Notes: a model not told the origin generated them from the letters alone. Counted from the first letter of the whole stretch, positions 6,666-62,195 are shown. The stretch is DNA of 62,195 bases, filler included, from Myxococcota bacterium (GCA_023150835.1; 3 parts of 3 records of this genome joined end to end with filler, not necessarily neighbours in it), one strand, 5' to 3'. Program-made: numbers and translations.

Positions 6666-6768
<103 letters not shown>

Positions 6769-6787
6769 TAAGGGCGATGATAGATTG

Positions 6788-6876
<89 letters not shown>

Positions 6877-6918
6877 AAGGAAAGAGCCAGATCAGCGTGT
6901 ACTTTATGAAGTACAACT

Positions 6919-7005
6919 CGGAGAGGGTGGGATTCGAACCCACGGTACGGTTCCCCGCACACTTGATTTCGAATCAAGCGCCTTCGACCACTCGGCCACC
7001 TCTCC
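6919..7005 (-). tRNA. tRNA-Ser(CGA)
   Basis: Anticodon arm CTTGA-TTCGAAA-TCAAG; long variable arm; GGTTCGAATCC. Confidence 0.96.
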
Positions 7006-7015
7006 TTGGGGGGGG

Positions 7016-7492
7016 TTACGTCGTTGTTTTGGGCTTTTTTTTACGCCGTGCGCGAAAAAAAGATTGCAACAACATCGCAGATTCTTCGGCGCATACGCCG
7101 CTTGTGATCGCAAATTGGTGATTGAAGCCTGCGTCTTGAGCCAGTTGGTGAAGTGTTCCACAACATCCGGCTTTTGCATCATCACAACCATACACAAGAC
7201 GTTCAATGCGGGCGTTGATCAGGGCTCCAGTACACATGGGGCAGGGTTCGAGGGTGACGTAAACGGTAGCTCCCGATATTCGCCATTGTCCCTTGTTTTT
7301 TGCGGCTTGTTGGAGCGCGAGGATCTCAGCGTGGGCGGTTGGATCCGCGAGTGTTTCGCGGAGGTTGTGTGCGCGACCGATGATTTGTTCTTCAAAGACG
7401 ATCACGCAACCTACGGGGACTTCGCCTTGTAAGGCCGCTTCTGCGGCTTCTTGCAAAGCGATCCCCATCCACAGCCTGTCTTGTTCTTGCAT
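7016..7492 (-). CDS. tadA: tRNA adenosine(34) deaminase TadA
   Basis: GEVPVG, PTAHAE, TLEPCPMC zinc motifs; start set at MQEQDRLWM because the longer ORF overlaps the tRNA. Confidence 0.94.
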   Translation of the reverse strand: MQEQDRLWMGIALQEAAEAALQGEVPVGCVIVFEEQIIGRAHNLRETLADPTAHAEILALQQAAKNKGQWRISGATVYVTLEPCPMCTGALINARIERLVYGCDDAKAGCCGTLHQLAQDAGFNHQFAITSGVCAEESAMLLQSFFRARRKKKPKTTT

Positions 7493-7496
7493 CACA

Positions 7497-7521
7497 CAAA
7501 AAACCCCGCATATGCAGGGTT
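7497..7521 (-). terminator. Putative intrinsic terminator between tRNA-Arg and tadA
   Basis: Minus strand AACCCTGCA-TA-TGCGGGGTT hairpin running into a T tract. Confidence 0.55.
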
Positions 7522-7526
7522 GGTTG

Positions 7527-7600
7527 CGCACCCGGGAGGATTTGAACCACCGACCTTCGGATTCGTAGTCCGACGCTCTATCCAGCTAAGCTACGGGTGC
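7527..7600 (-). tRNA. tRNA-Arg(ACG)
   Basis: GCACCCGTAGCTTAGCTGGATAGAGC; anticodon arm TCGGA-CTACGAA-TCCGA; T-loop TTCAAAT. Confidence 0.95.
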
Positions 7601-7638
7601 AAGATATGTTAGAAAGTCTCACAAAAGACATCAATTTG

Positions 7639-7728
7639 CGGAGAGAGAGGGATTCGAACCCTCGGTGGGGTTTTAAGCCCCACACCCGCTTAGCAGGCGA
7701 GCGCCTTCAGCCACTCGGCCATCTCTCC
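7639..7728 (-). tRNA. tRNA-Ser(GCT)
   Basis: Anticodon arm CTCGC-CTGCTAA-GCGGG; long variable arm; GGTTCGAATCC. Confidence 0.96.
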
Positions 7729-16285: not shown

Positions 16286-19084
16286 ATGGCGAGACGATCT
16301 TCCTGTTTGTCTGCTTCGGCTTTTTTCTTTCTCTCCAATTCTTCGCGCTTTTTGTTCCTGCTGTTGCTTTTCGGATCGGGCCTTGGAGCCTGTCGAGGCC
16401 AAGGGACGTGCAGCAAACAAGAAGACTGCATCGCAGGCACTTATTGCGTCGAATACTTCTGCAAGGTGCTTTCCTGCCCCATCGACCGCCCTCATCTGTG
16501 CGCTCTGCGTTGCACCAACATGAAAAAAGATGCCAATCATTGTGGTCAGTGCGGAAAAGCTTGTGACTTTGGCGAAGTTTGCGTCAGCGGTGGATGCCGT
16601 AGCGGCGTCGGTTGCACCGCCGAATCCGCTCTTTGCAACAACGCCTGCACCGAGCTTTATAAAGATGCCAAAAATTGCGGACAATGCGGCTTTGCTTGTG
16701 CCGCTGGTTATCTTTGCAAAGACAGCAAGTGCGTCCTTGACTGCGGAGATGGCGGCGTGTGCAACGGAAAGTGCGTGGCGCTCAAAACCGATCGCAACAA
16801 CTGCGGTCAATGCGCAAAAAAATGTGCGCGCACAGAGCTCTGCCAAGCGGGTGTTTGCACCGACGCTTGCGGAACGAGCCGCGCCCTGTGTGGAGAAACG
16901 TGCGTTGATCTCAACACGGACAAGGCCCACTGCGGAGCCTGCAATCGCGCTTGCCTTGATCAAGAAACCTGTACAGGCGGGCGCTGCGTCTGCCAAAACA
17001 ACGCTCGCCGAGCTTGTTATGACGGCCCCACCGCCACCAAAGGCATCGGCCCTTGCAAAGAGGGTTATCGAACCTGCAGCGCAGGAAACTGGTCGGATTG
17101 CGTCGCTCAGATCCTCCCCACCCTTGAAGTCCAAGGCGATCAAGTCGACAACGATTGCGATGGCCAGATCGACGAAGCCCCTTCGCGGACGATCAAGACG
17201 TGGATCGGTGCCGCTGGCGTGCTCTCCACCCCTTCGGGAGTCGCCTACGACGACGACGAAGGCGTCTTATACGTCTCTAGCACAGGCACACACCGCCTCT
17301 ACAAGCTCTATCCAAACGGACAACTCAGCCTTTTTGCAGGGAGCATCGTAGGAAAAACCAATGCCACAGGCGCGGCTGCGCGATTCAGCAGCCCTGCTGC
17401 TTTGGCGCTCGACGCACAAAAAAATCTTTACATCGCAGAATACGGCAACCATTGCATCCGCAAACTCACTCCCAAAGCAACCGCCAGCTTCTTCGCAGGA
17501 TGCGTCAGCATCGGCGCAGCCGACGGACAAGGCACCAAAGCCTCTTTCTTTCACCCGTTCTACCTTGCTTTTTCCCCAAACGGCGAGCTTTTCGCCACAC
17601 AAGACAGCAACACCAACCCGCCCGACAGCCATCTTTTGCGACGCATCACACCCGATGGGACGGTGTCCACTCTCGCCACCTTTGCCTTCGGTCGCAAAGA
17701 CGGCTCGCTCAGCGAGGCCAAGTTCCAATACCTCCGTGGCATCGCGATCTCCCCCGATATGCGCTTCTTGATCGCCGCAGATAGCGGAAACGATATCTTG
17801 CGCCGCCTGAATTTTGCGGATGGACAAGTCAGCACGTTCGCTGGAAGCGGTGTCAAGGGCAAGATCGACGGTGTCGCCTTTGCTGCGCAGTTCTGGTCTC
17901 CGCAAAGCGTGGTCTTCGACGGCAGCGGCGATCTTTATGTCTCCGATACAGGCAACCACGCCATCCGAAAGGTCGCTCCTGACGGACGAACCGTCACCCT
18001 CGCAGGCAACGGACGCGGTTGGCAAGATGGCCTCGGAACCGACGCCAAGTTCTACAACCCCGCTCAGATCACCCTTGATCGCAACGGCAACCTCTATGTC
18101 GCCGATAGCGCCAACAACGCCATCCGAAAAGTCGCTCCTGACGGCAATACCTCCACGATCTACCGCGAGATCACCCATCCCACCCACGAAAAACTCTTGC
18201 GCCCGGGAGCCCTCGCCATCGATAGCCTTGGCCGCCTTTTTGTCCCAGACATCGAGGCTCACGGCATCTTTGCTGCCGGTTCTCAAGGCGATCTCCTCGA
18301 ATGGAGCGGACACAACGGCAGCGGCTACACTGACGGAAAGCTCAACGCCTCATACAACGCCCCAAGCGCCCTTGCCTTCGATGCTCAAGACAACCTTTAC
18401 GTCGCCGACGAAGGAAACCACTGCATCCGAAAGATCGAAAAAGACGGAAGTGTCACCACTTTTGCCGGAACCAACACCGAAGGCTTTGCCGACGGAACTC
18501 GCCAACAAGCCCGATTCTCCGCCCCAAGCGGACTCGCCTTCGACACCAACGGCAACCTCTACATCGCCGACAAAAACAACCACCGCATCCGCAAAGTCGA
18601 CACCAACGGCAACGTGACAACCTTCGCTGGGGACGGAACACCCGCCCACCAAGACGGCCCAAGCTCCACCGCCCAGTTCCGCAACCCCACAGGACTTGCC
18701 TTTGACAACAACGGCAACCTCTACATCGCCGACACGGGAAATCATCGCATCCGCAAAGTCGACACCAACGGCAACGTGACGACCTTTGCGGGCGATGGCA
18801 ACGGGATATGGCGCGATGGGCCTGCTGCCATCGCCTCTTTCTTCGGCCCAAGCGGTGTCCTCTCCATGACCAACGGTGATCTGCTCGTCGCAGACACACA
18901 AAGCCGTCGTATCCGTCGCATCGACCCTCAAGGCAACGTGACAACTTTCGCGGGCAACGGTAGCACCAGCTTCAACGCGGGCCCCGTCGAAAACACAGGA
19001 CTCTCTGCCCCTTATTCAATGGTGCGCGACAAGACAGGCCGCATCTTTCTCTCCGACCGACAAACCATCCGCGTCATCGAATAA
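16286..19084 (+). CDS. Lipoprotein with Cys-rich repeats, a DNDCDG metal-binding motif and NHL beta-propeller repeats
   Basis: Lipobox GLGAC; repeated DxxNCGxCGxxC; VDNDCDGQIDE; many PxGLAFDxxGNLYIADxxNHRIRKV repeats. Confidence 0.88.
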   Translation: MARRSSCLSASAFFFLSNSSRFLFLLLLFGSGLGACRGQGTCSKQEDCIAGTYCVEYFCKVLSCPIDRPHLCALRCTNMKKDANHCGQCGKACDFGEVCVSGGCRSGVGCTAESALCNNACTELYKDAKNCGQCGFACAAGYLCKDSKCVLDCGDGGVCNGKCVALKTDRNNCGQCAKKCARTELCQAGVCTDACGTSRALCGETCVDLNTDKAHCGACNRACLDQETCTGGRCVCQNNARRACYDGPTATKGIGPCKEGYRTCSAGNWSDCVAQILPTLEVQGDQVDNDCDGQIDEAPSRTIKTWIGAAGVLSTPSGVAYDDDEGVLYVSSTGTHRLYKLYPNGQLSLFAGSIVGKTNATGAAARFSSPAALALDAQKNLYIAEYGNHCIRKLTPKATASFFAGCVSIGAADGQGTKASFFHPFYLAFSPNGELFATQDSNTNPPDSHLLRRITPDGTVSTLATFAFGRKDGSLSEAKFQYLRGIAISPDMRFLIAADSGNDILRRLNFADGQVSTFAGSGVKGKIDGVAFAAQFWSPQSVVFDGSGDLYVSDTGNHAIRKVAPDGRTVTLAGNGRGWQDGLGTDAKFYNPAQITLDRNGNLYVADSANNAIRKVAPDGNTSTIYREITHPTHEKLLRPGALAIDSLGRLFVPDIEAHGIFAAGSQGDLLEWSGHNGSGYTDGKLNASYNAPSALAFDAQDNLYVADEGNHCIRKIEKDGSVTTFAGTNTEGFADGTRQQARFSAPSGLAFDTNGNLYIADKNNHRIRKVDTNGNVTTFAGDGTPAHQDGPSSTAQFRNPTGLAFDNNGNLYIADTGNHRIRKVDTNGNVTTFAGDGNGIWRDGPAAIASFFGPSGVLSMTNGDLLVADTQSRRIRRIDPQGNVTTFAGNGSTSFNAGPVENTGLSAPYSMVRDKTGRIFLSDRQTIRVIE

Positions 19085-24848: not shown

Positions 24849-24948
24849 NNNNNNNNNNNNNNNNNNNNNNNNNNNNNNNNNNNNNNNNNNNNTTAATTAA
24901 TTAANNNNNNNNNNNNNNNNNNNNNNNNNNNNNNNNNNNNNNNNNNNN
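24849..24948. other. Artificial contig linker / assembly gap
   Basis: N run with central TTAATTAATTAA (stops in all six frames), 100 bp. Confidence 0.97.
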
Positions 24949-32330: not shown

Positions 32331-36638
<4,308 letters not shown>

Positions 36639-44009: not shown

Positions 44010-44999
44010 TCAGCGCAAGGAAGGTTTGCGCTTGGCGACAGACAACGCAAAGGGGCCGCGCAAAGTGAGCGTCACAGAGCGCTTGCGTGGCGAGATCTCC
44101 CAAAAAGCGATGCCTCCGCGCAGATCGATCGCTGAAAAAACAGCCTCGCGTTTTTCTATCGCATACAGCCTTGGGGTAGGTTGTAAAGTCTCCGATGGAT
44201 CGAGCTTTGAGGTGGGTTGTGAAGTCCCCGACAGGCGGGCTTTTGAGATGGGCTGTGAAGTCCCCGATAGGCGGGCTTTTGCGGTGGGCTGTGAAGTCCC
44301 CGACAGACGGGCTTTTGCGGTGGGCTGTGAAGTCCCCGACAGACGGGCTTTTGCGGTGGGCTGTGAAGTCCCCGATGGACGGGCCTTTGAGGCGGAAAAG
44401 GAGTTCTCGGAGGATCGGGTTGTTTGAGAGGGAAGAGGGAGAAAATCGGTCCAAACAAAGTGCTGCCGAATCCAACGACGCGGTGAAGCGGGCAGAAAAA
44501 AGCGAGATTCAACGGTGCGAAGGGTTTTTTCGGGGGTAAGGAATTGAAGTCGGCAAGCGAGATGGATCGATTGGTTGGAGCGGAAGTCGATACGGAATCC
44601 TTGGAGTGTCCGTGTTTTTGGAGAGGGGGTCGATTGCCAAGGAAACCGAGGCAAAAAGGAGGGTATTTCTTTGTGGGGTTCGTCGGGTGGGAGTTGGAAC
44701 AGCGGAGGAAGGGGAGCAGAGAAGAGGTGTTGAGGAGGTGACTTGGGGAGCAAGATCAAGGTCATCCAATCAAAGCGAGGATAGGATCGAGCCAAAAGTT
44801 GCGTTGTATTGGGAGAGATCGACCAGCCTGCGGGGAGATAGCGGTCGGGAGGTGAAGGCTGACAGCCCATCGCAAAGCAAGCAGCCCAAAAGAAAAGAAG
44901 AAAGCGCATCAAAAAAGAGGACTCCGTATGCCGTGAAAAAAGGGAAGTGAACATGGATCGCCAAAGCCGAGAAGTCAACCAGAGAGGAGCCATGAGCAA
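44010..44999 (-). CDS. Hypothetical lipoprotein with internal 12-aa tandem repeats
   Basis: Lipobox-like ACFAMGC; (KARLSGTSQPTA)n; real start probably at a downstream Met. Confidence 0.55.
   Translation of the reverse strand: MLMAPLWLTSRLWRSMFTSLFSRHTESSFLMRFLLFFWAACFAMGCQPSPPDRYLPAGWSISPNTTQLLARSYPRFDWMTLILLPKSPPQHLFSAPLPPLFQLPPDEPHKEIPSFLPRFPWQSTPSPKTRTLQGFRIDFRSNQSIHLACRLQFLTPEKTLRTVESRFFLPASPRRWIRQHFVWTDFLPLPSQTTRSSENSFSASKARPSGTSQPTAKARLSGTSQPTAKARLSGTSQPTAKARLSGTSQPISKARLSGTSQPTSKLDPSETLQPTPRLYAIEKREAVFSAIDLRGGIAFWEISPRKRSVTLTLRGPFALSVAKRKPSLR
44172..44390. repeat. 36-bp in-frame tandem repeat, about 5-6 copies
   Basis: GCGGTGGGCTGTGAAGTCCCCGACAGACGGGCTTTT units. Confidence 0.9.
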
Positions 45000-45005
45000 G
45001 TCATT

Positions 45006-47267
45006 CTAGCGCAGTTGTTGTGCTTTTTGCAGCCAAAGTCTTGCTTCATCAAAGCGTTGCAATCGTTGTAGTGTGTAAGAAAGAGAAAGGTAAACTTGTT
45101 TTTTCGGTCGGATGCTGGCGGCTTGTTGCAAAGCGCGAAGGGCGGACGAAAGATCGTTGGTGTACAGCGCAAACAATCCTTGAAGATAGCGAGGCAATTG
45201 TGCGTTGGGTTGCGCATGGACAGCACGCGCAAGTTCAGCCCGAATCAACGGGACATTCTTTGGCACGTTGGCCCAATCGTGCAATCGCGGCATATCTCCA
45301 AACGGGCGCAAAAAGCGATAACGATGCAACGTAAGCCACTCCGCAGACGAAGGAGAATTCAACACATACACCGCCGCTTGATCGTCCCAATAGACCAACG
45401 ACCATCGTTCGCGATGCCGCTCTAGCCAAGGTTTCATTTGAACAAACAGGCTGTGGTTCACCAACAAGATCTCAACGCGATACGGTTGGAGGATATCGGA
45501 AAAGTCCTTCACACGGACAAATTCTTTTACCAGAGGTGCAAACAAAAGATTACGCCCATCCCAAAATATCGGTCGTTTCAGCTTCCAACCGTAAAACCCG
45601 CCCTCGTTTTGGTGGTGAAAAATACGCCCTTGTAGCCGATGTTTTTGAACAAATGCAGCGGCATACGCAGGAAAACGCGAAAGCGGTTCACGCACAAACA
45701 CCGCAGGTTGCCACAACAACCACGCCAAGGCGATCACAGCCAACGCAGTCAAAGAAGCCAAAAGTACAGAGGCTTGGGATATGGCGTCTCTTTGCAAACG
45801 ACCGCTGTCTTCAGATGCCTCACCTCGTTCTTTCTTGCTTTCCGCTTTTTCTACATCCGCCGAAAGGCTCGGAAGGTTCGATGCTTTGGCATCCGCTGAA
45901 AGGCTCGGAGGACTCGATGTTTTGGCATCCGCTGAAAGGCTCGGAGGATTCGATGTTTTGGCATCCGCTGAAAGGCTCGGAGGATTCGATGTTTTGGCAT
46001 CCGCTGAAAGGCTCGGAGGATTCGATGTTTTGGCATCCGCTGAAAGGCTCGGAGGATTCGATGTTTTGGCATCCTTCGATGTTTCTGCGCCCTTCGATCC
46101 TTGCTCGTCCTCCAAATGTATCGGGTTATTCGATGTTTTTGCTGCATCCTCCAAATGTGTCGGGTTGTTCGATACTTTGGTTGAGTGATCTTGGGAAATG
46201 CTTGGTAGTTGGCTTTCTTCGGGGGTGGGTGTATTCACCCGCAGTTCAGGGATCAAAAGCAACCGTACGCACCAAGGCAAAGAGAGCAGGGCAAAGTGAT
46301 CGATGAAACGGTTTGAGCGCAAGGCCAAGATCAGGAAAAAGAGAGAGGCAAAAGCCTCATAAAAGCGGATCCTGTGTAAAGCTCGACGAGCGGACCACAA
46401 AGCCAACAAGCACAAAGCCAAGAATAGAAAAAAGAACGGGTGTCCTGAGGGGGTTGGTGCGGCAAAGATCCCAAGATCAAAAGATATCCCGCTGTGATAG
46501 AAGAAGCGGTTTAGATACCAAGGATAAAGCCAAACATCGAGTCCGTTGGGGTTGATCAAAGAGGCGGCCATCCCCATGCCCCCAAAAGTCGTAACGCGCC
46601 ACATCTGCGGAGTTTCAGCGTACCGCCAGCTTCTCCAAACAGCCTCACACCATAATCCGCCAAGCAGCACAAATCCAAAGATCACACCCGCGTGAAGGTT
46701 TCCCCATGCAAGAAACAACAAAGCTCCGATGGCCCATGTAATTTTTTGTTGTAGCGCCTGATCACGCTGCAAAGCCCACCACAACAGCGCCAAAAACAGC
46801 GAGGTCACAAGGGCTGCGCGCAAGATCAAAAAAGGCGCAAGCAGGCACAACACCAAACACAAGATCGGCCACAACCAAGCCTGTCGCAAAGGGTCGATCA
46901 ATCGGCGTGTTGTGGTGATGAGGATCGAAACCAAAGCGACAGCCAGAAGCTGCTTCAGGACGATCAGGCCCTGTGTTCCGCCCATTCGATAAAACGCATA
47001 ACACAGTAGAGAGAAAAGCCATTCGTGTGTAATCCAAGGAGCATGAGGGCGAGTGTAAGAAAAGGCATCGTGGTGTAAGATCCGCCCGTGTTGCACCATC
47101 CACTCCCCCGATTGGAGATGCCAAAACAGGTCGTCATGTTTGATCGGAGTGGCTGCAAGAAACCACGCGAGAGCAAGAAGGCCCCCAACCGTCAACCAAG
47201 TCATCCATCGCAACAACAGCCGTGTTTGTTCGGTGAGCTTGTTTTGTGTGCTTGGGGCGAATGACAT
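45006..47267 (-). CDS. Polytopic membrane protein (possible GT-C glycosyltransferase-like) with a C-terminal TPR
   Basis: DDLFWHLQSGEWM, WITHEWL, WGNLHAG, INPNG, FWDGR; more than ten hydrophobic segments; TPR-like end. Confidence 0.65.
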   Translation of the reverse strand: MSFAPSTQNKLTEQTRLLLRWMTWLTVGGLLALAWFLAATPIKHDDLFWHLQSGEWMVQHGRILHHDAFSYTRPHAPWITHEWLFSLLCYAFYRMGGTQGLIVLKQLLAVALVSILITTTRRLIDPLRQAWLWPILCLVLCLLAPFLILRAALVTSLFLALLWWALQRDQALQQKITWAIGALLFLAWGNLHAGVIFGFVLLGGLWCEAVWRSWRYAETPQMWRVTTFGGMGMAASLINPNGLDVWLYPWYLNRFFYHSGISFDLGIFAAPTPSGHPFFFLFLALCLLALWSARRALHRIRFYEAFASLFFLILALRSNRFIDHFALLSLPWCVRLLLIPELRVNTPTPEESQLPSISQDHSTKVSNNPTHLEDAAKTSNNPIHLEDEQGSKGAETSKDAKTSNPPSLSADAKTSNPPSLSADAKTSNPPSLSADAKTSNPPSLSADAKTSSPPSLSADAKASNLPSLSADVEKAESKKERGEASEDSGRLQRDAISQASVLLASLTALAVIALAWLLWQPAVFVREPLSRFPAYAAAFVQKHRLQGRIFHHQNEGGFYGWKLKRPIFWDGRNLLFAPLVKEFVRVKDFSDILQPYRVEILLVNHSLFVQMKPWLERHRERWSLVYWDDQAAVYVLNSPSSAEWLTLHRYRFLRPFGDMPRLHDWANVPKNVPLIRAELARAVHAQPNAQLPRYLQGLFALYTNDLSSALRALQQAASIRPKKQVYLSLSYTLQRLQRFDEARLWLQKAQQLR
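45853..46075. repeat. 36-bp in-frame tandem repeat, about 6 copies
   Basis: GCATCCGCTGAAAGGCTCGGAGGATTCGATGTTTTG units encoding SADAKTSNPPSL. Confidence 0.92.
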
Positions 47268-49631: not shown

Positions 49632-49731
49632 NNNNNNNNNNNNNNNNNNNNNNNNNNNNNNNNNNNNNNNNNNNNTTAATTAATTAANNNNNNNNNNNNN
49701 NNNNNNNNNNNNNNNNNNNNNNNNNNNNNNN
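49632..49731. other. Artificial contig linker / assembly gap
   Basis: N run with central TTAATTAATTAA, 100 bp. Confidence 0.97.
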
Positions 49732-49928
49732 TGCATACAGCGTGTGTCATGAAAAAACAAAATCCCCGCTGCTTCCGACTTTCGCTCCCTCCCCTGTTCA
49801 CGGGGGAGGGCTGGGGTGGGGGGGCCAACAAGCGCTTAACCTAACGCCTATGGGGGCAGCCCCCTGTGGCTTCCCGATAATCGGGCATCTGCGAATGATG
49901 CTTTGTGTACATCACTCGGATATCGTAT
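49732..49928 (+). repeat. Family C repeat joined to a partial family A repeat
   Basis: 49732-49853 is the reverse complement of about 62057-62179; followed by GGGGCAGCCCCCTGTGGCTTCCC...GGATATCGTAT. Confidence 0.85.
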
Positions 49929-56035: not shown

Positions 56036-56158
56036 ATACGAAATCCACCCATAGTGTGAGCGACCTTTGTAGGGGCAGCCCCCTGTGGCTGCCCAAGAAC
56101 AGGGCGTCTCCAACGGATCGCACCTACCCTTCAATCACACTTCTCTCGGATATCGTAT
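56036..56158 (+). repeat. Family A repeat, full copy
   Basis: ATACGAAATCC...GTAGGGGCAGCCCCCTGTGGCTGCCC...GGATATCGTAT; abuts the stop codon of the ComA-like gene. Confidence 0.85.
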
Positions 56159-57105
56159 CACTCGTTGGGCTTGCCGATGGACAGTTCCTTGAGCGCAAAC
56201 CCTCGCTGCATATCTTGGTGATAATCAGGAGACTCGATTTGCCACCAATGTTCGCACTGGCTCTTATCTTGAGACCACCGCATATAGGGGTGATCCATCT
56301 CAAAGATGATGCCGTGACGAACCCACTCCACCCACTTCACGTCCGGCGGGTAGATATTCGCCAGATTCACGTTCGGAGTCAGTTCTTTCACAAGCCAAGA
56401 GATAATCGGCAAATTTCCTTGGTTGCGAGCGTCCCATACTTCAAAAACCATTTTATCCGAATTAACAGCCTTTACGACTTCAAGAAACTGCTTTTGTCCT
56501 TCGATATTTTCAAGCTGAGTGCCGATCAAGTTGCGCACCACCATCCCTTCCCAATAGATGTAATCCGCGCCCGCTTCCAACAACCCAAGGGCCAGTTCGG
56601 TGACTTTGTCCACATAGACTTGGTCTCGACCTTTCCGAGTCGGATCCTTCCATGCCCATTTTTTCCCTAGCTCGCCAACCACCGTAAAGCCCGCATCTTT
56701 GGCCATCTTGATCTCATCTTTGAACTCTTCAAGAGAAGCCCCGCTGGCATGGTTCTCCACTTCGATCTCGTTGATCCCGAGCTGATGAAGAAGATGCAGG
56801 TATTCTTTCAGTTTGCCTTGCGCCTTGGCCACCTCAAACTGAGTCCCACCCAACGCCACGTCGATGTTCATGTCCCGATATTGAGCCACCGCCTTTTCCA
56901 CGATACTCAAGTCGTTGTGCCAAAGCGTGTCCAACATCTTCACCCGATCCACCAACTCACTATAAGAGCGAATAAACTCGGGTCCTTGGTTCACAACGTC
57001 CATCACAAGCACCATCGTAATCCCCGTCTTACGAGGCTTCCGTGTGCGCAAAGAATCCGCATCCAGTTTGTCTTGAAACAGTTTCAGCATCTCTGTTAAG
57101 TTCAT
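56158..57105 (-). CDS. Phosphosulfolactate synthase (ComA)-like protein, divergent, with a C-terminal extension
   Basis: RTRKPRKTGITMV, GGTQFE, ELGKK, LEAGA, VFE, NVNLANI, EWVRHG; its ATG overlaps the PrpF stop (ATGA). Confidence 0.75.
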   Translation of the reverse strand: MNLTEMLKLFQDKLDADSLRTRKPRKTGITMVLVMDVVNQGPEFIRSYSELVDRVKMLDTLWHNDLSIVEKAVAQYRDMNIDVALGGTQFEVAKAQGKLKEYLHLLHQLGINEIEVENHASGASLEEFKDEIKMAKDAGFTVVGELGKKWAWKDPTRKGRDQVYVDKVTELALGLLEAGADYIYWEGMVVRNLIGTQLENIEGQKQFLEVVKAVNSDKMVFEVWDARNQGNLPIISWLVKELTPNVNLANIYPPDVKWVEWVRHGIIFEMDHPYMRWSQDKSQCEHWWQIESPDYHQDMQRGFALKELSIGKPNE

Positions 57106-58226
57106 ACAAACACTCTTCCTTCCATGATCTTCCTCCAAGTCCGACCAAATGCCAGCCTCTGAAAACCGCCTTGGCCATCCGTTTGTACTTCGACTTCCAT
57201 CACGCCAGAAGGGTGTCCGATCCTCCATCTCCCACCCTGTTGCTGTTGCGATGCTTGGTGAACAAGGGTGCCTTCAAGGCTTGCAGCCGCTGCAAGGCAA
57301 ACAGCACCTGTTCCCGGAAATGTTTTGTGCGTACGCTTGAAGCCCACAAGCCTCGCCTGCATGTCGATATCGCCTGCGCTGAGCGAACGGTTTTCACCAT
57401 ACACCGAGCTTTCTTTCGGCCCAGAAACATAGCAAAGAAACGGAATGTACGGCGTCTTCGAAAATGCGTCCTCCGCTCGATCAACAAACCCCAGACGCAC
57501 CGCCGCTGCGCCGCGAATCATCTCAAGCTTTTCGATCAGTCCCCGATCCCCGTCAACCGCAGACGGCGACTCAACGCCCGTAAGCCCCAGAGATTCGGCC
57601 CTGATAAACGCTACAGGGTTCGCCAGATCCACGATGCTCATCTCGATCTCCCCGAGGCCGGGGACATCGACCGAATCGACTACGCGGCCTGTAGGTAAAA
57701 GTTTACCTGTCACGGAGCCCGCAGTTTCCGAGAAATCCAACATAATCTTCGCGCCAAAGCCGGGAACACCATCGATCGCGTAATCACCCACTGATTGCGG
57801 AATCCCCTCTTTGATAGGAACTTCTGCTGTGATGATCTTACCGACGTTCGTATTGTGGATCCGAATCTTTAAGAGGCCCTCATCCTTTGCACGAACAAAA
57901 CCTTCTTCGATCGCGATCGGTCCGACAGCAGCGGAGATATTGCCACAATTGCCTTCATAACTGACGGTATCTTTTTCTATGCCGACTTGCGCAAAAGTAT
58001 AGTCGACATCTGCCCCCGGCACGCTCGGAGGGCCAAGGATCGCCACTTTGCTGGTGAGTATATCTGCCCCACCCAATCCATCGATCTGACGGGCATCCGG
58101 CGTACCCATGATCCGCTTGATCACCCGATCTCGCTCTGGCCCTTGCGGCGGCAAGTCTTGCGAAAAAACAAACACTCCTTTGCTCGTTCCCCCTCGAACG
58201 ATCGCACAGCGAAAACTTTTCACCAA
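57102..58226 (-). CDS. PrpF-family isomerase (2-methylaconitate / aconitate / 3-methylitaconate isomerase-like)
   Basis: RGGTSKG, QIDGLGG..LTSKVAI, GNCGNISAAV, IDGVPG, LLPTG, IGHPSG. Confidence 0.9.
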   Translation of the reverse strand: MVKSFRCAIVRGGTSKGVFVFSQDLPPQGPERDRVIKRIMGTPDARQIDGLGGADILTSKVAILGPPSVPGADVDYTFAQVGIEKDTVSYEGNCGNISAAVGPIAIEEGFVRAKDEGLLKIRIHNTNVGKIITAEVPIKEGIPQSVGDYAIDGVPGFGAKIMLDFSETAGSVTGKLLPTGRVVDSVDVPGLGEIEMSIVDLANPVAFIRAESLGLTGVESPSAVDGDRGLIEKLEMIRGAAAVRLGFVDRAEDAFSKTPYIPFLCYVSGPKESSVYGENRSLSAGDIDMQARLVGFKRTHKTFPGTGAVCLAAAASLEGTLVHQASQQQQGGRWRIGHPSGVMEVEVQTDGQGGFQRLAFGRTWRKIMEGRVFV

Positions 58227-58237
58227 ACTCTCCTTTC

Positions 58238-58367
58238 CAAAGACGCCATCAGTCCATCGCTTTCAAAGACGCCATCAGTCCACCGCTTTCAAAGACGCCA
58301 TCAGTCCATCGCTTTCAAAGACGCCATCAGTCCACCGCTTTCAAAGACGCCATCAGTCCACCGCTTT
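58238..58367. repeat. 26-bp tandem repeat, 5 copies, overlapping the 3' end of the fused LeuCD gene
   Basis: CAAAGACGCCATCAGTCCA(C/T)CGCTTT at 58238, 58264, 58290, 58316 and 58342. Confidence 0.93.
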
Positions 58368-60375
58368 CAAATAGGCTTTTTTGAAAGGCATTGGAAGGCC
58401 GCGCCGCATACTCCTCACGGCGAGTATGGTTCACGATCCGCCCCAAAGAAACCTCGACAGAGATCTCATCGCCTTGCCGAATTTGGTAGGCGGCGTTGCC
58501 GATCTCAAAAACGGGCAAACCAATATTCAGAGCATTTCTAAAAAAGATTCGTGCAAAGCTGTGAGCGATCACCACCGAAAAACCCGCTTCTTTGATGCCC
58601 ATTGGGGCGCTTTCTCGCGAAGAGCCACAACCAAAGTTTTTACCCGCTACGCAGATATCCCCACTCAAACGGTATCGAGATTGTTTGAAATGACTGAGAA
58701 ATTCTGCATTCTCAGTATCCAACAACGTATACACTTTGTAGTCCTGTGGTGAAGTGATATTACAGAACCGAGCGGGCATGATCAGATCTGTATTGACATC
58801 ATCTCCAAAGCACCAAGCCTTTTGAGCGGGTGTATCGGACACATCGGCGTCCATCTCACGGATCGCAGCCTGATAAAAGGCGCTCCCCAAGGCTTCCATC
58901 ACACGTTTCGACTTTTGAAGAGAGGCGTCGAGCGACGCCCCTACGGCCTGCTCCGTCGCATAATAACACTCTTGGCCATAGCCCGAAGTCAAACGACCCG
59001 CCAGAGCCGAATACGCAGCCACCGACGGACTCGCAAGGATCACAGCCGAAAGCTTGTCTCCCGTACGACCATAGAAATTTCGATTGGAAGTAAAAATCGC
59101 CGTCTCTTTGGGTCCAACGACGCCCGATTTGATCCCGATACAAGGGCCGCAACTGGAGGACTCGATATAACAACCCGCCTCCAGAAACGTCCCCACAAGC
59201 CCTTCTTTGATCGCCTGCCGAAAGACCTGTTGTGAGGCGGGGATGATGATCGCCCGCACCCCGGGAGCCACGCGATGGCCTTTGAAGATATCCGCCACCA
59301 CGCGCAGATCTTCGATCCGACCGTTGGTACAGGACCCAATGAAGGCTTGGTGGATCGGGATATCGCCTTCCGCAGTCACACGATCCACGATGCCTTTGAT
59401 GCGGTTCAAGCCCAGCGGATCAGAGGTCGACTTGCGTTCTGGACGTAGCGCCTCTCTTAGCTGGTACACACCAAGCGCATTCTCTGGAAGATACGGTAGC
59501 GCGACCGTAGGCTCCATTTCTGATAAATCGATATCGATTTGTGCAGAATAAACGCCCTCAGGATCTCCGTCCATGCCCTTCAATCCGCTTACAGTATCCA
59601 AATCAAACCGCACTTCGTCGGGGAAATTCGCTTTGACTTCTTTTAGATAATCCAACGTCACATCGTCGACAGGAAACAGTCCGAATTTCGCCCCTGCTTC
59701 GATCGCCATATTGCTTATCGAAAATCGCGCCGCCATATCCAGACCGAACACTCCCGAGCCTGTGAATTCGATCGACTGGTACGTCGCCCCATCCACACCT
59801 GTCAGGCCAATTAAATGTAAGACGACATCTTTTCCATAAACGCCTTTTCTTAGCGTCCCCGTCAGATTTACTCGAATCGATCGAGGAACCTGTAGCCAAA
59901 CCTTGCCCGATATCATCGCCGAAGCTAAGTCCGTAGAACCAATCCCAGTACCCAAACAACCCAACGCACCGTAGGTACAAGAATGAGAGTCCGCCCCCAC
60001 GCCGACCGTTCCCGGGTACAAAAATCCACGCTCTTCAAAGAGACGATGTTGGATGCCCCCGTCATAACCGACCTCAAAAACCCGAATGCCGTATTTTTTT
60101 GCAAACTCACGCAGTCCCACCATCAACGCGGCCGACTTTGCATCCGTCGCAGGGACAAGGTGATCGAACGGGAACATGATCTTCGAAGAATTGGCTTTTA
60201 AAACAGCGTCATAGGTTCCATCAAGAAACCCCTTTTCGCGCAAAACATCCACCGCAAACTGAAGGGTCATCTCGCTCCCCCACGCAAGATCCACAGGGAG
60301 CTCTACAATTTCACCGATCTCCACCGACCGAGCGAGCCGGTGTGAAAAAAGTTTCTGTGTCAGTGTTTCAGCCAT
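58327..60375 (-). CDS. Aconitase-family dehydratase: fused 3-isopropylmalate dehydratase/homoaconitase large and small subunits
   Basis: FDHLVP, GADSHSCTYGALG, IGSCTNGR, SCGPCIG, TSNRNFYGR, then FGDDVNTD, GKNFGCGSSRE and SFARIFFRNA in one frame. Confidence 0.92.
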   Translation of the reverse strand: MAETLTQKLFSHRLARSVEIGEIVELPVDLAWGSEMTLQFAVDVLREKGFLDGTYDAVLKANSSKIMFPFDHLVPATDAKSAALMVGLREFAKKYGIRVFEVGYDGGIQHRLFEERGFLYPGTVGVGADSHSCTYGALGCLGTGIGSTDLASAMISGKVWLQVPRSIRVNLTGTLRKGVYGKDVVLHLIGLTGVDGATYQSIEFTGSGVFGLDMAARFSISNMAIEAGAKFGLFPVDDVTLDYLKEVKANFPDEVRFDLDTVSGLKGMDGDPEGVYSAQIDIDLSEMEPTVALPYLPENALGVYQLREALRPERKSTSDPLGLNRIKGIVDRVTAEGDIPIHQAFIGSCTNGRIEDLRVVADIFKGHRVAPGVRAIIIPASQQVFRQAIKEGLVGTFLEAGCYIESSSCGPCIGIKSGVVGPKETAIFTSNRNFYGRTGDKLSAVILASPSVAAYSALAGRLTSGYGQECYYATEQAVGASLDASLQKSKRVMEALGSAFYQAAIREMDADVSDTPAQKAWCFGDDVNTDLIMPARFCNITSPQDYKVYTLLDTENAEFLSHFKQSRYRLSGDICVAGKNFGCGSSRESAPMGIKEAGFSVVIAHSFARIFFRNALNIGLPVFEIGNAAYQIRQGDEISVEVSLGRIVNHTRREEYAARPSNAFQKSLFESGGLMASLKAVD

Positions 60376-60382
60376 CGAATTC

Positions 60383-61633
60383 TCACAAAAGCTTTCTGAT
60401 CTCTTCATCCGTTAGGACACGGTTAGAGGACTTCGCGAACTGAAGGATGCGTTCCACGACTTCGTCCGCCGCACTCAATCCGCGCTTCTTGAACCAATAC
60501 AAGACATTTGATTTTCCACTCACAGGGCCGATCTCGATCACTTGTTCGAGTCCCAAAGCGTGGGCAGGCACAGCTGAGTACACATAATCGGCCAGCCACC
60601 GGTCTTCCACACAATCAAAAGACTTGATCACCGCCGCAGCGTGTACGCCTGTGGACGTTCGAAACGCATCCTTCCCAACTGCCGGATAATGGGGCGGGAT
60701 GTCGACACCACACACTTTCGAGACGAATTGGCAATACTCGCCTAACACACCCAAGTCCTTTTTGTACAGCCCCATCAAAAACAGATTCACGATGATCTGA
60801 TCGATGGCTGCGTTTCCTGTGCGTTCGCCGATCCCCAAACAGGTGCCGTGTATGCGATCAACGCCCGCATCGATCGCTGCAACCAGCGCATTGCAAAGCC
60901 CCAAGCCCCTGTCGTTGTGCCCGTGCCAATCGATCTTGATATCTTCTCCCGTCGCCGCAACCACCGCTTTGACGTAACTGACAAGGTTTATCACCCCGTC
61001 AGGCGTCGAATAGCCCACCGTGTCCGAGATACAGATGCGGCGAGCCCCGCCTTCGATGGCTGTTGTGTACAACTTTTTGATCACTTCGGGTTCGGCTCGC
61101 GTGGTATCTTCGGTCACATACATCACTGGGACATTGTTTTTCTGACAAAAATCCATGACTGTTTCGGTGGCTTTCAACAACTTTTCAAGATCCCATCCTT
61201 CTGCAAAACGGCGGATAGAACTCGACCCAATAAACAGATGAGCCTCCACTTCTACACCTGTTTTTTGCATGATCTCGATGATCGGAACAACGTCGTTTGG
61301 TAGAGTACGCCCCGCACAAGCCAGATGGATATGGAGCTTTTGACTGGCAACTTCTTGCGCAATTCTCGTACAGTCAGCCTGAACAGAAGCACCCGCCGCA
61401 GGCAACCCGATATCAGCGATGTGAACGCCCAGATCGTTCATGTAGTGCAAGATGCGCAACTTGTCTTCGATCGCGGGGTGTGTCACCGAAGTCGACTGCA
61501 ACCCGTCCCGCAGCGTCTCATCATCCAACTCAATCCCGGGTGGGTGATGCAAGAAAAACCGTTGGGTCTTTGCCCCCTCGGCGTTCACTTCATTCCACGG
61601 ATAAACAAGATCCTTCATCGACGGAGAGTTCAT
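60383..61633 (-). CDS. DRE-TIM acetyl-CoA condensing enzyme (isopropylmalate/homocitrate/citramalate synthase-like) lacking the regulatory domain
   Basis: DETLRDGLQ, EDTTRA, DTVG, WHGHNDRGLG, GIGERTGNA, GPVSGKSN; ends shortly after. Confidence 0.88.
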   Translation of the reverse strand: MNSPSMKDLVYPWNEVNAEGAKTQRFFLHHPPGIELDDETLRDGLQSTSVTHPAIEDKLRILHYMNDLGVHIADIGLPAAGASVQADCTRIAQEVASQKLHIHLACAGRTLPNDVVPIIEIMQKTGVEVEAHLFIGSSSIRRFAEGWDLEKLLKATETVMDFCQKNNVPVMYVTEDTTRAEPEVIKKLYTTAIEGGARRICISDTVGYSTPDGVINLVSYVKAVVAATGEDIKIDWHGHNDRGLGLCNALVAAIDAGVDRIHGTCLGIGERTGNAAIDQIIVNLFLMGLYKKDLGVLGEYCQFVSKVCGVDIPPHYPAVGKDAFRTSTGVHAAAVIKSFDCVEDRWLADYVYSAVPAHALGLEQVIEIGPVSGKSNVLYWFKKRGLSAADEVVERILQFAKSSNRVLTDEEIRKLL

Positions 61634-61701
61634 CCACACCAGCCTTCCGAGTCGTAGTGATGCAAGGACGGAACATTTCAATCCATTTCTAACGTGGGGG
61701 G

Positions 61702-61731
61702 TTTGTAGCATTGGGGGAAGACAGGTGTCAA
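61702..61731 (-). promoter_or_regulatory. Putative sigma70 promoter of the four-gene operon
   Basis: Minus strand TTGACA-N18-TACAAA with extended -10 TG. Confidence 0.45.
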
Positions 61732-61762
61732 CAAAATTATGGTGAAGACGAGAAGTGATGCG

Positions 61763-62060
61763 GTGGACAAAAAACCCCGTGTTCGCAGCACTTCAAGCGA
61801 CAGAGCCGTCTGTATGAAACGCCTGTGCTCTCTTCGCCGGTACAGGGTCAAGGGAGCCGCGCCCTTAGCAGTGGGGTGTGGGATGACCCTCCCGCACCAA
61901 ACGAACAAGTCGCTTCTATAGGGCTTACGCAGTCGCCAAAAAAAGCCGTGTTCGCGGAATTTGCAAGCGGCTGTGCTGTTTGTTTGAAACACCCTCGATC
62001 ACTCCGCCAGCACGGGGTCAAGAGGGCTTTACCCGCTCGCGGGGCGTGGGGCCGCGCCCC
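61763..62060 (-). repeat. Two family B repeats in tandem
   Basis: AAAAA(C/G)CCGTGTTCGC...CAAGCG...GGGTCAAG...GGGG(T/C)GTGGG at about 61763 and 61935. Confidence 0.8.
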
Positions 62061-62195
62061 ATAGGCGTTAGGTTAAGCGCTTGTTGGCCCCCCCACCCCA
62101 GCCCTCCCCCGTGAACAGGGGAGGGAGCGAAAGTCGGAAGCAGCGGGGATTTTGTTTTTTCATGACGCACGCTGTTTGCACGAGACGCAGACGCT
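62057..62195 (-). repeat. Family C repeat at the contig end
   Basis: Reverse complement of 49732-49853 and of 20-125. Confidence 0.88.

Follow-up and report, generated by a model that had tools for sequence, protein, structure and literature searches.

A recurring four-gene operon that unites a LeuA-family synthase, a fused LeuCD-type dehydratase, a Mii-type isomerase and a divergent ComA-family protein, and that probably makes and modifies an itaconate-like acid

What might a bacterium produce with a LeuA-family synthase, a fused LeuC-LeuD protein, a PrpF-family isomerase and a relative of phosphosulfolactate (PSL) synthase, all encoded in a single operon? The reading developed here is that acetyl-CoA is probably the starting point for an itaconate-like branched acid, which the ComA-like enzyme would then modify. 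The analysis shows which families the proteins belong to, how the genes are ordered and packed, that the set is conserved, which residues have been retained and which have not, and beside which genes relatives lie; the substrates, the direction in which the pathway runs and the identity of the nucleophile are all inferred. The locus lies in a 62,195-nucleotide stretch of DNA from a Myxococcota bacterium (the window). This stretch consists of several contigs, with N/TTAATTAATTAA linkers between them at 24849-24948 and 49632-49731. The real context of the operon is therefore only the segment 49732-62195, a 12.5-kb contig from an uncultured sludge bacterium. The relevant features are as follows.

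60383-61633, minus strand: LeuA-family (DRE-TIM) synthase, 416 aa, without C-terminal regulatory domain (PF00682, 148 bits)
58327-60375, minus strand: fused LeuC-LeuD type Fe-S dehydratase, 682 aa (PF00330, 352 bits; PF00694, 63 bits)
57102-58226, minus strand: PrpF-family delta-isomerase, Mii type, 374 aa (PF04303, 382 bits)
56158-57105, minus strand: ComA-family protein, divergent subfamily, 315 aa (PF02679, 124 bits)
58233-58371, no strand: tandem repeat of a 26-bp unit in 5.3 copies, which occupies the LeuCD-PrpF spacer (TRF score 255, 96% matches)
56053-56147, no strand: dispersed repeat with a G+C-rich hairpin directly 3′ of the operon (families D6/D7)
61770-62027, no strand: two tandem copies of a dispersed repeat of about 90 nt, 5′ of the operon (family D10)

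The sequence-only reading of this DNA had described four co-oriented genes, a 7-bp gap between synthase and LeuCD and an ATGA overlap between the PrpF and ComA-like genes. All four ORFs indeed lie tightly packed on the minus strand, the first junction reads TGA, seven bases and ATG, and the ATGA overlap is present; the assignments to the LeuA-like, LeuCD, PrpF and ComA-like families hold as well. The length of homologues (398-420 aa) argues for the ATG at 61633 as the synthase start, and the isomerase probably starts at a GTG at 58223. A LeuB-type dehydrogenase, ComB and ComC had been said to be missing; none occurs in the operon, and scanning the six other ORFs of the contig detected no member of the Iso_dh, ComB or ComC families. 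The proposed upstream promoter did not withstand a sigma-70 scan, which returned no minus-strand site upstream of the synthase; the whole region gave a single promoter-like site, on the plus strand, where 3.9 would be expected. Neither the window nor the second locus described below has a transporter or regulator adjoining the operon.

The repeats reported on both flanks are real, though dispersed genome-wide. Families D6 and D7 have 9 and 5 copies within the window, and their copy at 56053-56147 is the end or branch point of many RNA and DNA contigs. D10 has four direct copies (32166, 37676, 61770 and 61940) besides inverted ones; the two units by the operon (61770-61857 and 61940-62027) are 78% alike, and an Rfam search of this region gave no family match. 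The 26-bp tandem repeat, as read from the sequence, duplicates the 3′ end of the LeuCD gene and yields a chain of mini-ORFs of 8-9 codons linked by TGATG overlaps; the stop of the last one, within GTGA, overlaps the probable GTG start codon of the PrpF-family gene. In an independent run, DNA contigs break at this repeat.

Whether the four genes belong together was judged from their recurrence. The sequence-only reading would have given up its pathway had the four families never been found together elsewhere. They are adjacent in one unrelated metagenome-assembled genome of another lineage (locus L001), at 55-74% identity and beside different neighbours (SUF and NadA), which makes the grouping more than chance. 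The longest-contig values 14562, 27797, 203604 and 25409 are common to the homologue lists of the ComA-like protein and the synthase, and all four reappear in the PrpF list; 2407 is common to the PrpF and ComA-like lists, 22582 and 6482 to the PrpF and synthase lists. These shared values, which are indirect matches, suggest that at least three further metagenome contigs carry the set. In a tree, a single clade (24 of the 117 rows, SH-like support 97) takes in all six linked ComA-like proteins. A near-identical operon is found in runs of eight sludge and wastewater studies, and RNA-library contigs from two studies span all four genes. We found no published description of this combination. A partial counterpart is the cassette in a plasmid-borne NRPS/PKS cluster of Streptomyces sp. 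KN37, in which a short LeuA-family protein (the only plasmid match to the synthase, 40.7% identity) is followed by a fused aconitase-family protein. That cassette differs in having a LeuB-type (isopropylmalate) dehydrogenase and no PrpF or ComA gene, and in its fusion, which shows only 32% identity, the small domain precedes the large one.

The 2.7 Mb assembly that contains L001 (G001) bears on the simplest alternative, namely that ordinary leucine or isoleucine genes lie by chance next to two unrelated genes. The earlier reading would have abandoned its pathway if the synthase and LeuCD genes complemented E. coli leuA/leuCD and were the only copies of their genome, with leuB elsewhere. In G001 this condition does not take hold: the operon copies are in fact the only LeuA- and LeuCD-type genes found there, but its only Iso_dh protein is an NADP isocitrate dehydrogenase (661 bits, cut-off 335) and LeuB was not found in this assembly. 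G001 also encodes a citrate synthase of the ordinary kind and an aconitase of 756 aa. As far as this assembly shows, the operon genes are not leucine genes. Some sources do label the neighbours 2-isopropylmalate synthase, in line with the chance-neighbour explanation; the recurrence of the four-gene set, the translational coupling of the genes and the failure to reach any LeuA, CimA or LeuC/D equivalog cut-off leave it hardly credible.

The synthase has the metal and catalytic motifs LRDG and HGHND, which align to those of solved synthases, and RDGLQS at the site where GEQ is the usual motif. It falls far short of the NCBIfam LeuA, CimA, HCS and NifV models (best score 195 for TIGR02146, cut-off 413.55; leuA_bact 157.5, cut-off 598.7; citramal_synth 119.7, cut-off 450). 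Thermus HCS residues R133 and S135 bind the distal carboxylate of 2-oxoglutarate; their counterparts here are Met and Val, so the synthase lacks the Arg/Ser pair of homocitrate synthase; the Met is kept in 16 and the Val in 17 of the 19 aligned family members. The position of HCS His72 is ambiguous, being His in the HCS alignments and Ala in the IPMS alignment; like the RDGLQS sequence, this counts against the reading proposed here. In the first step of the proposed route, this enzyme would join acetyl-CoA to a 2-oxo acid that is small and uncharged, pyruvate being the likeliest, and form a 2-alkylmalate of the citramalate type.

The fused LeuCD protein clears subfamily cut-offs (NF001614, 471 against 385; TIGR01343, 440 against 385.7; LEUD_arch TIGR02087, 149.6 against 108.95) and misses every equivalog (LEU2, 416 against 610.65; leuD, 156.5 against 245.85; HacA, 372 against 550). 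Its nearest solved structures are the subunits of the M. jannaschii isopropylmalate/citramalate isomerase (4nqy, 294 bits; 3vba, 131 bits). The LeuD specificity loop reads FCNI, without Arg, as compared to YLVY in 3vba and YLRT in 2pkp, and is kept in L001. The second step would be loss of water to a citraconate-type 2-alkylmaleate. It is the synthase without the distal-carboxylate Arg/Ser, together with a dehydratase nearest to the isopropylmalate/citramalate isomerase and free of Arg in its loop, that points to the citramalate, citraconate and itaconate series. The citramalate pathway (CimA, LeuCD and LeuB, leading to 2-oxobutyrate) and the leucine pathway likewise run from a DRE-TIM synthase to a LeuCD-type isomerase. 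They differ from the window operon, where LeuC and LeuD are fused, the synthase has no regulatory domain, the LeuB step is missing and an isomerase and a ComA-like enzyme stand in place of the dehydrogenase.

Comparison of the isomerase with the Mii, PrpF and LigU structures places it nearest to Mii (3g7k, 350 bits, E 1.6e-103; PrpF 2pvz, 254 bits; 6p3j, 197 bits). It stays below the equivalogs TIGR02334 (287 against 440.55) and NF033377 (315.6 against 440), and one source labels the L001 orthologue 3-methylitaconate isomerase. The Lys and Cys aligned to K73 and C107 of SoPrpF, given as the catalytic pair in PMC5690661, are retained. According to PMC4720413, Mii acts on methylitaconate/dimethylmaleate and also on itaconate. 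Proximity to Mii favours a methylene acid as product, and a double-bond shift thus seems more likely than a cis-to-trans flip. Of the first model put forward from sequence alone, the general idea of an enoate attacked by the ComA-like enzyme survives; a cis-trans isomerisation is no longer the expected step, and its choice of sulfite as nucleophile is unsupported. The third step would be an allylic proton shift of the double bond to an itaconate-type 2-methylenesuccinate.

A cis-trans step is retained in a different scheme, in which the synthase makes citrate, the LeuCD-type enzyme cis-aconitate, the Mii/Adi1-like isomerase trans-aconitate, and the ComA-like enzyme decarboxylates the latter to itaconate; decarboxylation would put electrons into the conjugated carboxylate and lead, as in ComA, to a Mg-stabilised enolate that is protonated by Lys. 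We regard this scheme as rather unlikely. The LeuA family includes Re-citrate synthases, which make citrate. PMC4720413 describes the Ustilago aconitate isomerase Adi1 as a close Mii relative, so that likeness to Mii is compatible with a tricarboxylate substrate, and Ustilago maydis forms itaconate by means of this PrpF/Mii-related isomerase and a decarboxylase (PMC4720413). The Adi1/Tad1 cluster resembles the proposed route in that its isomerase, related to PrpF and Mii, passes its product to a final enzyme that forms or consumes the itaconate skeleton (PMC4720413); that cluster, in contrast, starts at cis-aconitate of the TCA cycle, has no dedicated synthase or dehydratase, and takes Tad1 from another superfamily. 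Weighing against trans-aconitate are the Met and Val of the synthase, the Arg-free LeuD loop and the citrate synthase and aconitase already present in G001, which make dedicated copies redundant; moreover, we know of no decarboxylase in the ComA family.

For the last step of the itaconate-type route, the ComA-like protein was compared with PSL synthases (ComA, EC 4.4.1.19). It exceeds the Pfam ComA cut-off (PF02679, 124.1 bits against 25.2), stays under the equivalog (TIGR03849, 102.6 against 280) and matches 1qwg with E 3e-21. M. jannaschii ComA scores 79 bits against this query and B. subtilis 1u83 only 31 bits; as 1u83 is the more distant of the two, sequence distance by itself is compatible with PSL synthase activity. 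Of the residues of the window protein, E115, E145, K149, E186, E222, D53, K56, E91 and R263 are also present in 1qwg and 1u83. The first four are invariant in the 19 aligned subfamily members and align to M. jannaschii E103, E133, K137 and E168, presumably the Mg ligands and acid. None of the 19 members keeps the two motifs of the solved enzymes, E-I-S-[DN]-G and E-[GA]-R-E-S-G; the window protein has E-V-E-x-H and W-E-G-M-V-V-R at these places. We attribute a role in PSL synthesis to the two motifs only because two solved enzymes conserve them. The sequences that take their place introduce a Glu and a His, both invariant, which could activate water. The subfamily also has an insertion (W150...R157...R160), a conserved C-terminal extension of about 45 residues and the extra invariant arginines R157, R160 and R227, which would suit aconitate as substrate.

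Thus the protein shares its Pfam family and its acidic and Lys residues with ComA, XcbB and YitD (coenzyme M and sulfolactate synthesis), as well as the kind of acceptor proposed, a 2-substituted acrylate; it differs from them in the two motifs, the insertion and extension, and the want of ComB, ComC and Xcb partners. Itaconate-type acids and phosphoenolpyruvate have the same CH2=C(X)-COO- skeleton. On its own contig, and for PF04029 and PF02615 also in the G001 assembly, the gene was not found in the company of ComB/ComC, Xcb genes or a sulfite supply.

These data bear on two sulfur-based proposals. In the specific form of the first model, the last enzyme uses sulfite as nucleophile on the enoate, and the product is a sulfonated dicarboxylate, for example 2-(sulfomethyl)succinate. 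In its favour, itaconate offers the same acceptor skeleton, the catalytic core of ComA is conserved, and the literature consulted (PMC9457059) gives the family no activity other than sulfite addition to phosphoenolpyruvate, a 2-substituted acrylate. Loss of both motifs throughout the subfamily, with a Glu and a His that could serve water instead, tells against it, as does the finding of no sulfite-forming, -exporting or -oxidising gene in the operon or among the neighbours of relatives, where the 40 proteins annotated, from a set of 348 ORFs, included no sulfur gene. Sulfite addition is thus possible yet unsupported, and we consider it unlikely. The second model, in which the ComA-like protein supplies phosphosulfolactate and then sulfopyruvate for chain extension by the synthase/LeuCD pair, draws on its membership in PF02679. 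Phosphonate analogues of such chain extension exist. It is unlikely, indeed very improbable, since ComB (PF04029) and ComC (Ldh_2, PF02615) were found neither in the operon nor in the G001 assembly, the PSL-synthase motifs are lost, the synthase pocket has hydrophobic Met and Val at the anion-binding positions, and relatives of the ComA-like protein occupy carboxylate loci.

The latter point emerges from neighbour counts made by clustering, with Pfam annotation of one representative per cluster. ComA-like relatives usually lie beside carboxylate transporters, CoA-transferases, PrpD or acyl-CoA dehydrogenases. A transporter gene is near 34 of 53 loci, CoA_transf_3 in 5, MmgE/PrpD in 5 and acyl-CoA dehydrogenase in 2; relatives take the first position in operons with TctCBA transporters (6 loci), CoA-transferase pairs (5), PrpD (5) and acyl-CoA dehydrogenases, and on a Natrinema plasmid a ComA-like gene adjoins genes for CoA transferase, HMG-CoA lyase, enoyl-CoA hydratase and Tct proteins. 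Such company would be accounted for by the aconitate scheme. Of 52 metagenome loci that carry a ComA-like gene, 51 lack the other three families within the DNA fetched, and the remaining one (L016) has only an ordinary split leuC/leuD (35%). Hence the ComA-like enzyme has a role independent of the trio, one that looks catabolic and fits a biosynthetic last step poorly.

Company in uptake and CoA-ester loci would also agree with flow in the opposite direction, with the ComA-like enzyme turning a beta-substituted precursor into an itaconate-type acid, the isomerase and LeuCD-type hydratase carrying this on to an alkylmalate, and the DRE-TIM enzyme cleaving the latter. The lower nicotinate pathway of Eubacterium barkeri is the model for this arrangement. 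There, DmdAB, a LeuCD-type dimethylmaleate hydratase, is followed by dimethylmalate lyase. In common with the window operon, that pathway pairs a Mii-type isomerase with a hydro-lyase of the LeuCD family, there for methyl-branched C5-C6 dicarboxylates; the window isomerase is nearest to Mii itself. The E. barkeri pathway, however, is catabolic and ends in a lyase of the isocitrate-lyase family, whereas here a LeuA-family synthase and a ComA-family protein are outermost, and we saw no mutase or nicotinate genes near the window operon. LeuA-type enzymes hydrolyse the thioester and are therefore effectively irreversible synthases; in addition, the gene order starts with the synthase and the operon adjoins no transporter or regulator at either locus. 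Thus, even with Mii belonging to a catabolic pathway in E. barkeri (PMC4720413), we think degradation quite improbable.

In the itaconate-type route, the ComA-family enzyme, rather than acting as a phosphosulfolactate synthase, would bind a 2-substituted acrylate and work through a Mg-stabilised enolate protonated by Lys; in the simplest case, a small nucleophile (water, sulfite or another) would be added to the methylene carbon. Our tentative reading, held at somewhat less than even confidence, is that the locus may be a self-contained operon for a branched unsaturated dicarboxylate, in which a ComA-like enzyme would act on an itaconate-type enoate by way of that enolate.

The operon comprises four open reading frames arranged in tandem on the minus strand and covering 5.5 kb in total.

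Genes of the operon
60383-61633, minus strand, HMGL-like synthase, 416 aa (Pfam, 148 bits)
58327-60375, minus strand, fused aconitase-family protein (LeuCD), 682 aa (Pfam, 352 + 63 bits)
57102-58226, minus strand, PrpF-family protein, 374 aa (Pfam, 382 bits)
56158-57105, minus strand, ComA-family protein, 315 aa (Pfam, 124 bits)

Seven bases separate the synthase stop from the LeuCD start, and an ATGA overlap joins the PrpF and ComA genes. ORF calls and the sequence itself thus bear out the shared orientation, the 7-bp gap and the overlap described in the sequence-only reading. The upstream promoter candidate of that reading was not confirmed: a sigma-70 scan found no sigma-70-like site upstream of the synthase on the minus strand. 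Rfam searched at gathering score returned no family upstream of the operon and, elsewhere, only tRNAs and SRP RNA (the latter at 6667-7728, minus strand, with four clustered tRNA genes, three Ser and one Arg). A permissive Rfam search of 61550-62195 for a riboswitch or leader gave two chance-level matches (E > 0.5).

Linkers at 24849-24948 and 49632-49731, made of N-runs around the six-frame stop linker TTAATTAATTAA, identify the window as three artificially joined contigs; therefore, genes to the left of 49632 are no neighbours of the operon. The operon's own contig (49732-62195; 12,464 bases) additionally carries genes for PI-PLC, a DUF4886-like protein, MsrA, a TPR protein and DUF1295, all of which look unrelated to the operon. 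The stretch is present in runs of 8 studies, covering activated sludge, wastewater and bioreactors. An independent DNA run yielded two contigs (6 differences in one, 3 in the other), both of which break at a 26-bp repeat. RNA libraries of two studies gave contigs covering all four genes (such libraries can contain DNA), and two of these contigs bridge the PrpF/ComA junction. Both flanks of the operon being repeats, DNA carry-over may account for this cover. Gaps in it carry no weight.

The 26-bp tandem repeat (5.3 copies; 58233-58371) occupies the spacer between LeuCD and PrpF. It is a copy of the last codons of LeuCD, with a unit one base short of nine codons, and yields consecutive mini-ORFs (MASLKA[V/M]D) connected by TGATG overlaps. 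The first of these sits on the LeuCD stop, and the GTGA that closes the last one overlaps the GTG at which the PrpF-family gene probably starts; coupled translation of LeuCD and PrpF may have survived expansion of the repeat. As had been noticed from the sequence, repeats lie on both flanks of the operon; they belong to dispersed families spread over the whole window. The ends of the operon contig are inverted copies of one repeat (49732-49864 and 62048-62180, 95%), and inverted copies of the same repeat are found at 19-124 and 62090-62195 (93%). Intergenic families D6/D7, D9, D10, D14 and D17, with G+C-rich hairpins, are dispersed throughout the window; such repeats are REP- or MITE-like and evidently break assemblies. 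Tandem repeats of coding sequence that keep the reading frame, their periods being 36, 162 and 27 bases, also occur in large ORFs (44135-44422, 45807-46183, 17423-18960 and 36279-36420).

The four genes are found together elsewhere. A species-genome scan that took the ComA-like protein as query returned a single relative (74% identity), in a groundwater metagenome-assembled genome (MAG) labelled Deltaproteobacteria. At this locus, L001, the synthase, LeuCD and PrpF genes (56, 56 and 55% identity, respectively) occupy one strand and the ComA-like gene is adjacent and divergent. Direct overlap takes the place of the window's repeat-filled spacer, and the neighbours, SUF genes and NadA, differ from those in the window. 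A profile scan of metagenome contigs identified 52 further ComA-like loci, none of which shows the remaining three families in the retrieved DNA; one of them, L016, has just an ordinary split leuC/leuD (35%). Indirect indications of further contigs with linked genes come from matching "longest contig" values: the ComA-like, synthase and PrpF homologue lists share 14562, 27797, 203604 and 25409, the PrpF and ComA-like lists share 2407, and the PrpF and synthase lists share 22582 and 6482. One clade (24 of 117 rows, SH-like support 97) takes in all six ComA-like proteins with such links, which marks the four-gene set as characteristic of a single sub-clade within a larger ComA-like family. Within the phylum of the L001 genome (G001), a synthase orthologue at E <= 1e-60 occurs in 1 of 131 genomes, G001 itself. 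Plasmid searches gave two matches to the ComA-like protein, 337 to the PrpF-like protein, all below 47% identity, and one to the synthase; a Paraburkholderia context proved uninformative.

The synthase scores below every curated LeuA, CimA, homocitrate synthase (HCS) and NifV cut-off (best, 195 against 413) and is without a regulatory domain. It belongs to a large family of "LeuA family proteins" (398-420 aa, 54-66% identity) from Blastocatellia, Vicinamibacteria, Chloroflexota and Victivallales MAGs. R133 and S135 of Thermus HCS, which we take to be the binders of the distal carboxylate, align with Met and Val, kept in 16 and 17 of 19 family members, respectively; the alignment is ambiguous at HCS His72. 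All 18 of the 19 aligned members that cover the stretch read RDGLQS at residues about 42-47. Classical LeuA, CimA and HCS enzymes have RDGEQ, and HMG-CoA lyase has RDGLQ. On a plasmid of Streptomyces sp. KN37 (L058, 9962-14230), a short member of the LeuA family shows 40.7% identity to the synthase. It is accompanied by a fused aconitase-family protein whose small domain comes first and by a dehydrogenase of the isopropylmalate type; the NRPS/PKS cluster that contains all three also encodes two crotonyl-CoA carboxylase/reductases. These three proteins probably constitute a 2-oxo-acid chain-extension cassette.

The fused LeuCD lies above subfamily and below equivalog cut-offs and is nearest to the M. 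jannaschii isopropylmalate/citramalate isomerase (294 and 131 bits). The loop of its small domain reads FCNI, identically in L001, against YLVY in the M. jannaschii enzyme and YLRT in homoaconitase. Among solved relatives, the PrpF-family protein scores highest with Eubacterium barkeri 3-methylitaconate delta-isomerase (Mii; 3g7k, 350 bits), followed by PrpF (254) and LigU (197), and retains the Lys and Cys aligned to K73 and C107 of SoPrpF (PMC5690661). Mii converts methylitaconate and dimethylmaleate into each other, and itaconate is a further substrate (PMC4720413). Taken together, the synthase pocket, the affinity and loop of LeuCD and the likeness to Mii point to substrates with uncharged methyl-type side chains and to the citramalate, citraconate and itaconate series or a close homologue. 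Chain extension of sulfopyruvate, the second model of the sequence-only reading, appears very improbable.

Grouping of leucine genes by chance we hold to be scarcely credible. Paralogues were counted in G001 (2.7 Mb) rather than in the window's organism. There, no LeuA- or LeuCD-type genes were found besides the operon copies, the only Iso_dh gene encodes NADP isocitrate dehydrogenase, and the genome also encodes an ordinary citrate synthase and an aconitase of 756 aa. Judged by the sequence available for G001, the operon there is neither a leucine pathway nor required for the TCA cycle.

The ComA-like protein matches M. jannaschii ComA with E 3e-21, and a subfamily profile matches that enzyme with 124 bits; the protein scores 102.6 against an equivalog cut-off of 280. 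Across 19 aligned members, with identities as low as 44%, nine residues common to both solved phosphosulfolactate synthases (1qwg and 1u83) are invariant: D53, K56, E91, E115, E145, K149, E186, E222 and R263. Two motifs of the solved enzymes are replaced, E-I-S-[DN]-G by E-V-E-x-H and E-[GA]-R-E-S-G by W-E-G-M-V-V-R. Most rows of 46 relatives encoded at the loci (to about 37% identity) likewise show E-[VY]-E-x-H and a hydrophobic W-E-G-[ML]-x-x-[RQ]. The subfamily further has an insertion of its own (W150, D154, T156, R157, R160) and, at the C-terminus, a conserved extension some 45 residues long. We infer that enolate chemistry is unchanged and the substrate pair different; the Glu and His gained could activate water. 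The subfamily has at least 180 metagenomic relatives, and its Protein Atlas matches are solely to clusters named putative phosphosulfolactate synthase, an automatic label that is probably wrong for this subfamily.

In ComA, the enolate is stabilised by Mg and protonated by Lys. Itaconate is a carbon analogue of PEP, both being 2-substituted acrylates, and sulfite is added by ComA to C3 of PEP (PMC9457059). Our preferred reading, offered tentatively, is that the synthase, LeuCD and PrpF-family protein would make an itaconate-type acid, to the methylene group of which the ComA-like enzyme would add a small nucleophile. Sulfite as that nucleophile is possible, yet unsupported and rather unlikely; no sulfite exporter, oxidase or reductase was seen among the 40 neighbour proteins of ComA-like genes that were annotated.

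These 40 proteins, analysed with Pfam, were one representative per cluster of neighbour ORFs plus some single ORFs.

Neighbours of ComA-like genes
SBP_bac_8-type binding proteins, 13 loci
MFS transporter with TrmB regulator, 6 loci (MFS in 7)
TctC, 6 loci (TctB and TctA in 4 of these)
TAXI/TRAP components, 5 loci
CoA-transferase family III, mostly paired, 5 loci
MmgE/PrpD, 5 loci
Amidohydrolase_2, 4 loci
Enolase-superfamily proteins, 3 loci
Aldehyde dehydrogenase, 3 loci
Acyl-CoA dehydrogenase, 2 loci

PrpR-type and LysR regulators, CstA, and AFOR with ETF also occur, and a transporter gene is near the ComA-like gene in 34 of 53 loci. On a plasmid of Natrinema zhouii (L056, 7538-12944) a ComA-like gene (38% identity, annotated in two pieces) has an adenylosuccinate-lyase-family gene on one side and genes for CoA transferase, HMG-CoA lyase and enoyl-CoA hydratase on the other, with Tct genes near; this is a cultured organism carrying the subfamily. 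Some solitary ComA-like genes have a GFA-family protein and a nitronate monooxygenase among their neighbours (L008, 9544-10002; L017, 4878-5864), and metallo-beta-lactamase-fold proteins lie just upstream of the ComA-like gene in L009 and L017; proteins of these three kinds handle small electrophiles or lactones.

Pseudomonas loci break down itaconate and other C5-dicarboxylates. The resemblance of the ComA-like genes' company to such loci suggests, by analogy, that the family acts on free branched di- or tricarboxylates. The main rival to nucleophile addition, in which the same enolate would serve to decarboxylate trans-aconitate to itaconate, accounts better for this catabolic company and has a parallel in Ustilago Adi1 and Tad1; we consider it unlikely, carboxylate-binding residues being missing in the synthase and LeuD and dedicated enzymes being redundant with those of the TCA cycle in G001. 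That the pathway itself runs in the catabolic direction is decidedly unlikely, since LeuA-type synthases are irreversible.

In the literature searched, we found no paper on this gene combination (some of the methylitaconate searches could miss "3-methylitaconate") and no ComA-family enzyme linked in the literature to Mii, LeuA or LeuCD genes; judged by title, none of the methylitaconate papers listed concerns such an operon. The parts all belong to known families; the combination is new and its function predicted. To our knowledge, addition of sulfite to PEP is the one reaction credited to the ComA family; the active-site motifs changed in this subfamily suggest that the family has a second chemistry. 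In its broadest form, which we regard as unlikely though worth stating, the proposal is that some uncultured bacteria would make itaconate de novo (pyruvate + acetyl-CoA to citramalate, citraconate and itaconate) without aconitate decarboxylation, and that a new ComA branch would then turn it into a C5 compound not yet described, for instance 2-(sulfomethyl)succinate or 2-(hydroxymethyl)succinate; this branch would be widespread and unrecognised in the C5-dicarboxylate metabolism of soil and water bacteria and haloarchaea. At 5.5 kb and four genes, the operon is brief enough for simple expression. Itaconate matters as an immune metabolite, as an antimicrobial and as a bulk chemical, and both routes to it known to us decarboxylate aconitate. 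If the proposal is true, condensation, dehydration and isomerisation would constitute a third itaconate route, a bacterial one, with direct use for engineering.
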